Below are positions 17,753 to 52,098 of a stretch of 64,000 nucleotides of DNA, in pieces. The position numbers and the translations under genes are program-made. Below the pieces are notes generated by a model. It had not been told where the DNA came from. It saw only the letters and a list, made by a program, of their open reading frames with translations, and did not search any database. The stretch comes from a virus: IMG/VR virus record IMGVR_UViG_3300021364_000006. One strand, given 5' to 3'. How positions within the stretch are numbered: position 1 is the first letter of the stretch; every line of letters starts with the position of its first letter.

Positions 17753-17837
17753 TGCGAGTAGGGAGACTTGAACTCCCACGAGCGTAATGCTCAACAGATT
17801 TTAAGTCTGGTGTGTCTACCGATTCCACCATACTCGC
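17753..17837 (-). tRNA. tRNA-Leu(TAA)
   Basis: Cloverleaf, anticodon loop CTTAAAA, long variable arm, GTTCAAG T-loop; no encoded CCA. Confidence 0.95.
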
Positions 17838-17978
17838 AGGACATTACACTTATCCGAATGCTTGCTATGGGGCACTCAACCCAACATTCTGACAGTTTGT
17901 AATGGAGCAAAGAGAGTAACCAACTCTCAAGATCACAGTGTGGTTAGCACCGTCGCGGGCGAGCTCATTCCCCGTCTA
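17838..17978 (-). ncRNA. structured RNA between tRNAs (possibly manA-motif-like)
   Basis: Several clear helices (CATTACA/TGTAATG, GAATGTT/AGCATTC, GAGAGT/ACTCTC, ACGGTG/CACTGT, CGGG/CCCG); family name is a guess from context. Confidence 0.55.
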
Positions 17979-17979
17979 A

Positions 17980-18052
17980 TGCTTCCTGAGAGGATCGAAC
18001 TCTCCTTAGGCAAATTATGAGTTTGCTGCATTCACCAGATTGCTAAGGAAGC
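17980..18052 (-). tRNA. tRNA with CAT anticodon (elongator Met or lysidine-type Ile2)
   Basis: Cloverleaf; loop CTCATAA; lacks initiator hallmarks. Confidence 0.9.
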
Positions 18053-18055
18053 AAA

Positions 18056-18127
18056 TGGTTCTGCCGAGAATTGAACTCGGTTCACACGCTTATAAGGCAT
18101 GGGCTTTAACCAATAAGCAACAGAACC
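18056..18127 (-). tRNA. tRNA-Ile(TAT)
   Basis: Cloverleaf; CATGC-CTTATAA-GCGTG anticodon arm. Confidence 0.9.
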
Positions 18128-41996: not shown

Positions 41997-42062
41997 TAGT
42001 TTACTCCTAAAAGAATGGAAAATTAACCTTCTCTCGTTTCCGAGGATCCGTTTTCCGTTCCT

Positions 42063-42224
42063 TCAGTCGTTTGCGTCCCATTGACATTCGGGTACAGATT
42101 CCCTTACGGTTTCTACAAGTTCTACAACCACTGCTGGTGGTAGATTCTTATTTTTGCTGATCCTTAACATTAAGGATTCAGCATCCTGACATGTCAACGT
42201 TGAATACAGAAGTAATTCAAACAT
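42063..42224 (-). CDS. 53-aa two-Cys protein inside the second aptamer loop (not in ORF track)
   Basis: MFELLLYSTLTCQDAES...VPECQWDAND; GGAG 10 nt upstream. Confidence 0.65.
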   Translation of the reverse strand: MFELLLYSTLTCQDAESLMLRISKNKNLPPAVVVELVETVRESVPECQWDAND

Positions 42225-42260
42225 GGGATGAACGCTCCGTTCCGCGACTTACTTGCGTCC

Positions 42261-42458
42261 TCAGGTAAATGTACCATTGCATTCCCCTTCAACTTTTGAT
42301 TTGAAATACTGGATGAGATTCCATTTCGATCGTTGATCGATGTCGTCCCTCATCTGTGTCTCAACTCTGAGTTGTAGAAACCTTTCACAAGACATATGCC
42401 ACCCATAGGGTGACGGATCGTGATGGGCTAAGGTGAAAGCCAATAGTAGAGATACCAT
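42261..42458 (-). CDS. 65-aa two-Cys protein inside the first aptamer loop
   Basis: ORF exactly spans the P2 loop. Confidence 0.65.
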   Translation of the reverse strand: MVSLLLAFTLAHHDPSPYGWHMSCERFLQLRVETQMRDDIDQRSKWNLIQYFKSKVEGECNGTFT

Positions 42459-42475
42459 TGGATGAACGTATGGTC

Positions 42476-42527
42476 ATTATAGACCGCATCACATATTTAG
42501 TCAAGTACTTTTGTATCTTGTGATACA
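42476..42527 (-). promoter_or_regulatory. sigma70 promoter TTGACT-N17-TATAAT with upstream NtcA box (TGTA-N8-TACA)
   Basis: -10 at 42476-42481, -35 at 42499-42504, tgtatcttgtgataca at 42512-42527. Confidence 0.7.
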
Positions 42528-44426: not shown

Positions 44427-45763
44427 GCTGGATAATCCCATTTAGTAATTGATTCTACTTGCTTCCAAGGTCCCCACGTAGAAGGCATATAGACGTAAGG
44501 AACAGTGCGAATCTGACATTGATCACCCTCACACAAAAGATCATCAACAATTCGCCAGGACTCCATCACTTCTTCTGAGTGGACAAAGTGGGACTGGTCT
44601 CCGTTGATTGCATCGTAGAGTAGTTTTTCATATCCGTCGATTGCTCTATCTTCTGGATAGGCGTGTGTGAGGGTAGCACGCTCAAGATTATCAGCAAGAC
44701 CAGGGGACTTAATATCCATCCTAATATCCAGATGAGGATGAGGCTGAAGACGGATGACGATACGATCATTGATTTCGCCCTCATAGAGTCTTAGCGGTGG
44801 TGCTTTTAGTTTGATAACAACCTCTACACATCCATAAGGCATGTGCTTTCCAGTCATGACGTTAAAAGGAACTCCTTCCCAACGCCAGTTGTCAACGAAA
44901 AGAGTACCAGCGAAATAGGTAGGAGTACCACTGTTAGGATCAACGCCCTCTTCATCACGGTAGCCATGGTATTGTCCAAGAATAACTGTTGGTGATAGTC
45001 TAGTCGCTGCCAACACTTTTGTCTTCTCTCTTCTGACTTCAGTTGCTGACATTCGGCATGGAGGTTCCATGGCAATCAATGCAAGAACCTGCAGAACATG
45101 ATTTTGTAACATGTCTCTAACAGCACCAGCAGTTTCATAATATTGAGCTCTACCTTCACAACCAATAGTTTCAGTTGCAAAGATCTGAACTTCTTCTATG
45201 TACTGCCTGTTCCAAAGTGGTTCCAGTAAAATATTGCTAAAACGGGTGGCAAGGATGTTATTAACAGTATCTTTGCCAAGATAATGGTCAATGCGATAAA
45301 CCTGTTTCTCGCGTAGATGTCTAGCAACCAAAGTTGATAGATGATCAGCAGATTTAAAATCGTGCCCAAAGGGTTTTTCGATAACCACCCTAGTTTTTTC
45401 TGGGTCATCTAAACATCCTGCCTCCTTTAGATTAGCAATTGCATCAGCATATCTTTCTGGTGGAACAGAAAGAAAGTAAGTCAGATCGTCAATGTAATCT
45501 GGCAAATGTCTAAGTGTATCCACCATAGACAAATCAGCACATTGATAATCTAAATGATTTAGAAAATCTTCAGGATAATCACCCAAAGATTCCTTCCACA
45601 TTTCTGCTGTTGGTTCTCTTCTAGCAGAACCCATAATTAAAAAATTGTCTGGTAGAAGTTCTTTCTGCCAGAGTTTATAAAGTGCTGGAATAAGTTTTCT
45701 CTTGCATAGATCTCCAGTCGCACCGAAGATAACTATGCCTTTAGTGAGCGGTTCCGTTTCCAT
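44423..45763 (-). CDS. zwf: glucose-6-phosphate dehydrogenase
   Basis: GATGDL, EKPFG, RIDHYLGK, DMLQNH; probable start METEP. Confidence 0.97.
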   Translation of the reverse strand: METEPLTKGIVIFGATGDLCKRKLIPALYKLWQKELLPDNFLIMGSARREPTAEMWKESLGDYPEDFLNHLDYQCADLSMVDTLRHLPDYIDDLTYFLSVPPERYADAIANLKEAGCLDDPEKTRVVIEKPFGHDFKSADHLSTLVARHLREKQVYRIDHYLGKDTVNNILATRFSNILLEPLWNRQYIEEVQIFATETIGCEGRAQYYETAGAVRDMLQNHVLQVLALIAMEPPCRMSATEVRREKTKVLAATRLSPTVILGQYHGYRDEEGVDPNSGTPTYFAGTLFVDNWRWEGVPFNVMTGKHMPYGCVEVVIKLKAPPLRLYEGEINDRIVIRLQPHPHLDIRMDIKSPGLADNLERATLTHAYPEDRAIDGYEKLLYDAINGDQSHFVHSEEVMESWRIVDDLLCEGDQCQIRTVPYVYMPSTWGPWKQVESITKWDYPA

Positions 45764-45872
45764 CGTAGTCGTCTGAGTCGTAGTAGTCATTTTCACCTTT
45801 TCGTATCCCGAAATATATCGTGGCCAGTACAAACGGTATTGAAATCCATGTGAGTGCATCAGAGAAGATCAT
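45741..45872 (-). CDS. small membrane protein (43 aa, ...KGENDYYDSDDYDGNGTAH)
   Basis: Translated by hand; explains the apparent N-terminal extension of zwf. Confidence 0.6.
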   Translation of the reverse strand: MIFSDALTWISIPFVLATIYFGIRKGENDYYDSDDYDGNGTAH

Positions 45873-51952: not shown

Positions 51953-52056
51953 GTAAGACCATCAGGGAAATGGTGGAGTTACTATTTCCTCGCACCCTTA
52001 GCGAGGATATGAAAGACGTTTTTATACTCCCTAGAGGTCTTGGTTTACGGGGAGTT
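51953..52056 (-). ncRNA. PhotoRC-II-like structured leader of psbA
   Basis: ACTCCC/GGGAGT, CCTCGC/GCGAGG and CCAT/ATGG stems; loop complementarities AAGAC/GTCTT and AGGG/CCCT; position in the phage psbA 5' UTR. Confidence 0.7.
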
Positions 52057-52098
52057 GAACAAAAAATTAAGAACGTTACGTTTCTTAACCTGTTGACT

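Follow-up and report, generated by a model that had tools for sequence, protein, structure and literature searches.

Glutamine riboswitches of two types are the closest described systems. The glnA motif was reported together with the 2010 glnA alignment, held in the supplement (PMC2864571), and the glutamine-I riboswitch in the Synechocystis gifB leader follows ON logic and has DUF4278 targets (PMC6212724). In the glutamine-II structure 6QN3 (Downstream-peptide, RF01704), the RNA forms strand-exchanged dimers in the crystal, and a two-piece RNA binds glutamine (PMC6698751). Tandem arrangements are also known, with 157 glutamine doublets listed as pseudo-cooperative in a review that does not use the terms 'nested', 'interlock' or 'phage' and lists no nested or gene-containing architecture (PMC9481103). 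For phages, an Rfam glnA match of 99 nt has been reported in S-CREM1 (PMC9964418), with further matches in Melnitz and AG-345-P14 (PMC9004378). Unlike the element described here, all three are given as plain glnA, without structure analysis, a second core or loop genes. We found neither the nested fold nor the loop genes described in the full-text literature searched; a mention in the Syn9 transcriptome paper or in Ames and Breaker 2011 is possible. CfrI, considered as an earlier description, is a psbA antisense RNA and unrelated.

The element lies in a 64,000-nt window (the whole stretch of DNA that was analysed) from a T4-like marine Synechococcus phage, and the BLAST relatives of the window are cyanophages only. 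Near the element are talC, seen in the translations and then confirmed, and genes that we take from their translations to be zwf, gnd, petE and thyX. Rfam placed a PhotoRC-II RNA at 51974-52069 (75 bits) and three tRNA genes at 17753-18127, all on the minus strand, and a 43-aa ORF (45741-45872, minus) overlaps the zwf start. Folding of the 501-nt region gave z = -5.4 against shuffles. More than 119 viral contigs contain the central junction as an exact match, and BLAST recovers it from 434 cyanophage records; the element is therefore not a chance arrangement. From cyanophages, we parsed 379 complete distinct homologous elements, gathered by pattern- and protein-based fetches, so that class counts depend on the queries used and the invariance of CGC and AAGTA among them is partly fixed by the search patterns. 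The element is real and widespread in cyanophages. An exact-pattern scan of 185,579 prokaryote genomes gave 10 matches (MAGs, one SAG and one isolate assembly), seven of which are covered 79-97% by cyanophage-locus proteins; among the others, L225 is also in a viral collection, leaving L216 and L221. A host origin was rejected on the mostly cyanophage proteins around these seven matches to one exact pattern, beside which diverged host copies are possible. Four of the prokaryote-assembly contigs, L222 (Nonlabens xiamenensis 1Q3, 188 kb), L217, L223 and L224, have 85-97% cyanophage-locus protein coverage and are probably phage DNA. P-SSM4 has a manA RNA (L121:717-902), with its nested glutamine element following ~90 nt downstream.

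The element is read on the minus strand, where every string quoted in the original prediction was found base for base and in the order given; the interval proposed there, 42056-42468, held for these strings and leaves out the outer linchpin G, which is the very next base (42055). The outer P1 5' strand CGUUC (42468-42464), whose C1 is the predicted ligand contact, is followed by P2a, where UCC (42462-42460) pairs with GGA (42260-42258) and closes a loop of 199 nt. The outer core continues with CGC (42257-42255), an A, the loop-E strand AGUA (42253-42250) and the P3 5' strand AGUCG (42249-42245). Next come the inner P1 hairpin (42230-42243), composed of a G, GAACG (42242-42238), the linker GAG (42237-42235) and CGUUC (42234-42230), and P2b, where UCCCAU (42228-42223) pairs with AUGGGA (42081-42076) and closes a loop of 141 nt. 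The inner core has CGC (42075-42073), AAA and the P3 3' strand CGACU (42069-42065), after which loop-E GAA (42064-42062), a G, the outer P1 3' strand GAACG (42060-42056) and the linchpin G complete the outer core. Both P2 loops are enlarged, as had been claimed, and each holds a whole coding gene. Among the 379 elements, CGC and AAGTA of the outer core are invariant, the outer linchpin G is present in 375, and the loop-E GAA is replaced by AAA in 90.

The outer core shares with RF01739 the CGUUCA-P2-CGN-A-AGUA-P3-GAA-G-GAACG three-way junction with loop E (AGUA/GAA), the position upstream of a DUF4278 gene and an RBS covered by the aptamer 3' strand. Compact phage forms pass the threshold of this model: natural short-loop forms score 41-46 bits (gathering 35) and are aligned as a single outer aptamer with a 38-48-nt P3 insert. 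These forms provide a natural version of the loop-deletion check and bear out the glutamine-aptamer identity of the outer core; the 99-nt match in S-CREM1 is presumably about the length of the compact nested forms. Unlike in RF01739, there is no G-C linchpin, no P3 with a simple loop and no compact single domain; the linchpin is C-G, P3 opens into a second permuted core, the P2 loops carry genes of 49-79 codons, and the element occurs here only on phage-like DNA. The proposed match to the glnA class thus stood for P1, P2, loop E and P3, and failed for the linchpin, which in both cores is CGC...GAACG-G of the glutamine-II type and not the glnA CGG...GAACG-C. The claim that standard covariance searches miss the element was confirmed by the result for the window, which gave no glutamine-riboswitch match in Rfam at gathering or at E<=10.

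With glutamine-II, the element has in common the core of CGUUCAUCC...GGACGCA and GGAACGG, the C19:G41 linchpin and a YRG-peptide target. Equivalents of C1, G2, G18, C19, G35, C39, G40 and G41 in the glutamine-II structure, including the C19:G41 pair, occur in both cores (PMC6698751), so that the RF01704 contacts C1, G2, G18, C39 and G40 and the pair are present. The RF01704 pseudoknot, a second helix closed by a strand 3' of G41, is absent, covariation favouring nested three-way junctions, and, unlike in glutamine-II, the strand exchange is intramolecular and fixed by covariation. RF01704 matched neither the window nor the compact forms. Linchpin-swap variants were sought among the parsed elements and none was genuine (degenerate copies beside insertions and a chance coding match in L215); thus, the linchpin is without compensatory evidence. 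As in tandem glutamine and dual-aptamer glycine riboswitches, two homologous cores precede one expression platform, but here the cores are interlocked and neither forms alone from contiguous sequence. Judged by its sequence, the element appears to work like a glutamine riboswitch while being a plain member of neither type.

A sigma70-type promoter, TTGACT-17-TATAAT (42476-42504, minus; 11/12 match), ends 7 nt before C1, and the transcript is predicted to start 1-2 nt before C1. A sigma70-like promoter is present in 281 of 369 relatives. A T4-late-like TAAATA (42499-42494) overlaps the promoter, and such a motif stands at -33 to -31 in 165 of the 369. Around the -10 box lies an inverted repeat (42469-42490, minus) whose sequence varies freely between elements, with arms of 6-7 bp in 183 of 270 cases, where controls mostly have 2-4 bp. 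On late or read-through transcripts this repeat might fold into a 5' hairpin; alternatively, it may act as a DNA element. Upstream of the promoter is an NtcA-type box, TGTA-N8-TACA (42512-42527, minus), a candidate site by its sequence. GTA-N8-TAC occurs within 90 nt upstream of C1 in 228 of 350 distinct upstream regions, compared to 8.8 in shuffles, and the matches cluster at -62 to -52. The NtcA box is conserved by this comparison and provides independent evidence of a nitrogen context.

The original prediction had left the downstream output unnamed. The gene is a 54-aa DUF4278-like (IF17-like) gene with YRG motifs (41996-41832, minus; phrog_545, gp198 in Syn9), and an anti-Shine-Dalgarno hairpin is predicted to control it. 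Its protein matches phrog_545 with E 1e-32 and PF14105 with E 0.0018 (score 19.1, under the curated cut-off of 25.3), and a YRG protein follows 228 of 239 elements. In IF17-like proteins that are short, the C-terminal GS-binding part is absent (PMC6212724). Directly after the gene are a 30-aa hydrophobic ORF (41826-41734, minus) and a terminator-like hairpin (41713-41691, minus), the probable end of the operon. In the MFE folds, CUGAAGGAA (42066-42058), the stretch that supplies P3, loop E and outer P1 with their 3' strand, pairs with UUCUUUUAG (42015-42007) in an OFF hairpin (42004-42066, minus) that covers the Shine-Dalgarno AGGAG (42008-42004). The hairpin is predicted in the 3' segments of 209 of 239 relatives, making the expression platform, as computed, mutually exclusive with the aptamer. 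Where loop E has the A variant, the opposite base is T in 56 cases and C in none, whereas G stands opposite C in 79 or T in 74. The alternative hairpin is thus conserved at the level of sequence, and its ON logic is that shown for host glutamine riboswitches (PMC6212724). A subset of elements has an optional platform insert (42017-42055 in the window, minus), a GAAA-capped hairpin with a purine-rich GGA/GAA internal loop, which lengthens the distance from linchpin to Shine-Dalgarno from ~21 to ~49 nt and greatly strengthens the OFF hairpin.

The P2a loop contains ORF1 (42458-42261, minus; 65 aa, phrog_6471, gp196 in Syn9), which has a hydrophobic N-terminus, two invariant Cys and a leader of ~11 nt without a Shine-Dalgarno. 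The P2b loop contains ORF2 (42224-42063, minus; 53 aa, phrog_504, gp197 in Syn9) with invariant Cys12 and Cys47, modelled as a two-helix hairpin between them (pLDDT 84.5; H12-24, H30-43). Loop genes are annotated in Syn9 and P-SSM4. The conservation expected of both ORFs was recovered, with dN/dS of 0.16 for ORF1 (15 disjoint pairs) and 0.25 for ORF2 (62 pairs), values that mark real coding genes under purifying selection. Their profiles align (hhalign 93.9%, E 1.6e-7) as those of remote paralogs, direct BLASTP between them giving no match, which suggests that they arose by duplication of a unit of aptamer half plus gene. Neither protein gave anything above the Pfam cut-off, the ORF2 model found no fold match in the PDB, and the ESM Atlas and homologue search returned hypothetical clusters only. 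A lipobox or classic signal peptide, looked for by eye, was not convincing. Further loop-protein subfamilies (L021:4440-4643, L339:3474-3653 and L003:4511-4702) have the hydrophobic start and two-Cys pattern, and one subfamily, phrog_13397, occurs in either loop.

The limits of the ORFs keep a fixed register with the structure, as had been noticed from the window. Start codons lie 4-5 nt into P2 in ~95% of cases. ORF1 ends in a TGA that abuts the P2a arm, and in relatives it ends in the P2a arm or loop E. For ORF2, the Shine-Dalgarno GGAG (42238-42235) overlaps the inner P1 hairpin, the A and U of the AUG pair in P2b, and the TGA (42065-42063) straddles P3 and loop E, so that the last codons (WDAND-stop) are aptamer core. 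In 310 of 328 elements, the stop coincides with U-[G/A]-A at the P3/loop-E junction, varying only between UGA and UAA, and a 3-bp extension of P3 preserves the frame. Among elements of the 5-bp-P3 type, the linker GGAG is found in 223 of 252 with ORF2 versus 1 of 10 without it, counts that are not independent, and Prochlorococcus-type elements mostly have no GGAG for ORF2 (5 of 76 do).

Taken as a whole, the locus is probably best explained as a nested double glutamine aptamer that is ON for the DUF4278 gene and reciprocally blocks the loop genes; here we infer the ligand, the occupation of two pockets, the direction of control, the reset by ribosomes and the functions of the proteins. A small nitrogen-response operon of the phage, governed by a host-type promoter and an NtcA box, would begin at this locus, and its transcript would start with a dumbbell-shaped double glutamine aptamer. 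The outer junction would be glutamine-I-like with loop E, and the inner one permuted, with P1 closed by the 3-nt linker and P3 in common, while each P2 loop would hold a gene from a single family of two-Cys helical hairpins. With little glutamine present, the aptamer would be open, the loop genes would be translated (ORF2 from the GGAG of the inner linker), and the DUF4278 Shine-Dalgarno would be covered (OFF) by the strand that otherwise forms the 3' side of P3, loop E and outer P1. With glutamine abundant, the nested fold would form and free this Shine-Dalgarno (ON), and the Shine-Dalgarno and start of ORF2 would be buried, turning the loop genes off. The DUF4278 protein probably damps host glutamine synthetase as IF17 does. 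Since the ORF2 stop lies on the switching strand, a terminating ribosome should unfold the OFF hairpin and the outer pocket, and the RNA would choose again. A swapped-strand pocket is plausible because glutamine-II RNA forms strand-exchanged dimers and a two-piece RNA binds the ligand (PMC6698751). Points against this reading are the computed energy gap of the nested fold, the small number of independent P1 changes, an inner pocket that has no loop E and must place its linchpin G in a 3-nt loop, an ORF1 with no Shine-Dalgarno, the scarcity of GGAG in Prochlorococcus-type elements, the sub-threshold Pfam score of the DUF4278-like protein and the absence of the GS-binding part from short IF17-like proteins. 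The fuller proposition is a serious possibility that we hold tentatively: interlocked pockets around translated genes, with an RBS and a stop codon in the ligand cores, would be switched reciprocally by glutamine and have their fold reset by ribosomes, as the standard nitrogen sensor of T4-like cyanophages that is mostly invisible to covariance searches.

The strongest alternative, which we consider unlikely, is that the nested riboswitch controls DUF4278 and the loop genes are passengers, cassettes in tolerated P2 sites that glutamine does not regulate; the conserved cores would then serve as homology arms for cassette swaps, and translation would mainly take place when or where the aptamer is irrelevant, for instance on read-through or late transcripts. 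In favour of this alternative, a late-promoter-like motif overlaps the promoter. All four combinations of loop 1 and loop 2 occur among the 379 elements (short/long 203, long/long 125, short/short 39, long/short 12), giving a gene in at least one P2 loop in 340, and the state of loop 1 changes 35 times on the ORF2 tree. The loop genes are not needed for the sensor as far as the sequences tell, because 39 of the 379 elements have neither. A passenger origin does not readily account for the placement of start codons in P2, an ORF2 stop held on the switching strand with the P3 extension in frame, or a linker GGAG that tracks the presence of ORF2. Moreover, no loop-gene homologues were seen outside an element, including in 159 loci fetched by protein alone.

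Group I introns carry homing-endonuclease ORFs in peripheral loops. Like them, the element is a folded functional RNA that tolerates whole genes in its loops, and endonucleases enter it too; unlike in the introns, the RNA that houses the genes is a presumed metabolite sensor within the same mRNA, and an RBS and a stop overlap the ligand core. A 190-aa homing-endonuclease-like gene (phrog_314) sits in the inner P1 linker at eight loci (L137:2256-2831, L359:490-1059, L149, L151, L182, L190, L193 and L360) and in the isolate Sf-CH5 (L506:599-1171); GGAG apparently serves as the Shine-Dalgarno of this gene. In 17 contigs (L091:5806-6351, L140, L147 and L508-L521), an EndoVII-like gene (phrog_1035) lies 3' of the element, preceded by the T4 late promoter TATAAATA in an inverted repeat; some contigs carry both endonucleases. 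A second nested element, complete but diverged and with a fully changed P3 (GAGCATA/TATGCTC), houses the EndoVII-like gene in its P2a loop of 518-545 nt. These genes in P2a and the inner linker show that the loops accept unrelated genes, which favours the passenger alternative. The second nested copy lies directly before the DUF4278 gene, suggesting that this gene needs the nested sensor.

As an alternative to two glutamine pockets, it is also conceivable, yet improbable, that glutamine is bound in the outer pocket alone and that the inner core is a structural 'ghost' or a mere hairpin hiding the ORF2 RBS, with no two-site or cooperative sensing. Ghost aptamers are known in glycine riboswitches (PMC9481103). 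In place of loop E, the inner junction has AA/C, and the loop that closes the inner P1, 3-5 nt long (3 nt in this window), must also supply the linchpin G, the first G of the GAG linker. This G is nevertheless present in 379 of 379 elements and the inner CGC in 376, also in compact forms without any ORF. Moreover, the strands of the inner P1 still match across the ~600 nt of the phrog_314 insert in the linker, and the diverged second copy retains GAACG-G, CGUUC and a GC dinucleotide, which argues against this alternative.

The topology was decided from the four P1 strands, S1 to S4, which pair as S1/S4 and S3/S2 in the nested fold and as S1/S2 and S3/S4 if two glutamine-II-like aptamers stand side by side, each with its own P1, joined by a loop-loop helix. 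The commonest P1 sequence allows both pairings (324 of 379 elements). Half-units of the phage elements were also recorded as glnA members in the 2010 alignment, singly and with ORF2 left in the flank, while the nested architecture was not (PMC2864571). We therefore searched for P1 variants on purpose, and both nested helices are intact in 54 of 55 such elements, both side-by-side helices in 0 of 55. For the inner P1, S2 CAACG goes with S3 CGTTG in 54 of 54 variants, and for the outer P1, S4 AAACG goes with S1 CGTTT in 9 of 9. On the ORF2 DNA tree, these amount to five independent concordant changes in the inner P1 and three in the outer, too few for significance by sign test (p 0.06 and 0.25). 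The inner strands, 3 nt apart, are tightly linked, whereas those of the outer P1 are separated by as much as 800 nt. With the exact glutamine-I spacing of the outer junction with loop E, these data largely refute a tandem or kissing topology, which is very improbable as the functional form and may exist as a folding intermediate.

The inner, circularly permuted core that shares P3, as originally proposed, was therefore upheld, and across the orthologous loci P1, P2 and P3 all show compensatory pairs. P3, of a 5-bp and an 8-bp type, occurs as AGTCA/TGACT, GATCG/CGATT, AATCG/CGATT, AGACAACG/CGTTGCCT and AGCCGACG/CGCCGACT. The first three pairs of P2a are present in all long-loop elements, with CG, UA, UG or AU as the third, and pairs 3 and 4 of P2b in 100% and 98% of them, again of CG, UA, UG and AU types. 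Comparative sequence data thus establish the nested secondary structure and the conserved contact bases. Among L226-L345, which have the 8-bp P3, this helix often consists of the same near-palindromic AGCCGACU in two copies, leaving two C-A mismatches, a hint that a self-dimerising half was duplicated to give the element.

As computed by ViennaRNA without loop E, tertiary contacts or ligand, the nested fold of the element in this window is 14.8 kcal/mol less stable than the free fold, and the median gap is 5.8 kcal/mol in compact and 8.8 kcal/mol in two-gene forms. A simple equilibrium switch is doubtful in this window on these model energies. Because millimolar ligand is unlikely to bridge such a gap alone, folding during transcription or help from the ribosome seems needed for the nested fold. 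That a real structure responds here to a different ligand or to a protein, or serves in processing or stability, could be argued from its mixture of type-I and type-II features and is hardly credible, given that all published glutamine contacts are present and that the DUF4278 target and the NtcA box indicate nitrogen status.

The usual assumption, on which searches rest, is that riboswitch aptamers are compact and do not encode proteins. Since 340 of the 379 elements carry a loop gene and the element in the window is missed by Rfam, other riboswitches may be hidden likewise. As a natural aptamer supported by covariation, the element combines circular permutation with a strand swap that corresponds to the one in glutamine-II crystals, and it offers a direct test of whether a shared helix leads to true cooperativity, where tandem glutamine aptamers are thought to be independent. 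The interlocked architecture implies that nitrogen sensing and translation would compete for one RNA. For the phages, our data suggest that most T4-like cyanophages may read the nitrogen status of the host twice, through NtcA and through glutamine, and that both readings would govern the output of an IF17-like protein and of a two-Cys family of small proteins.
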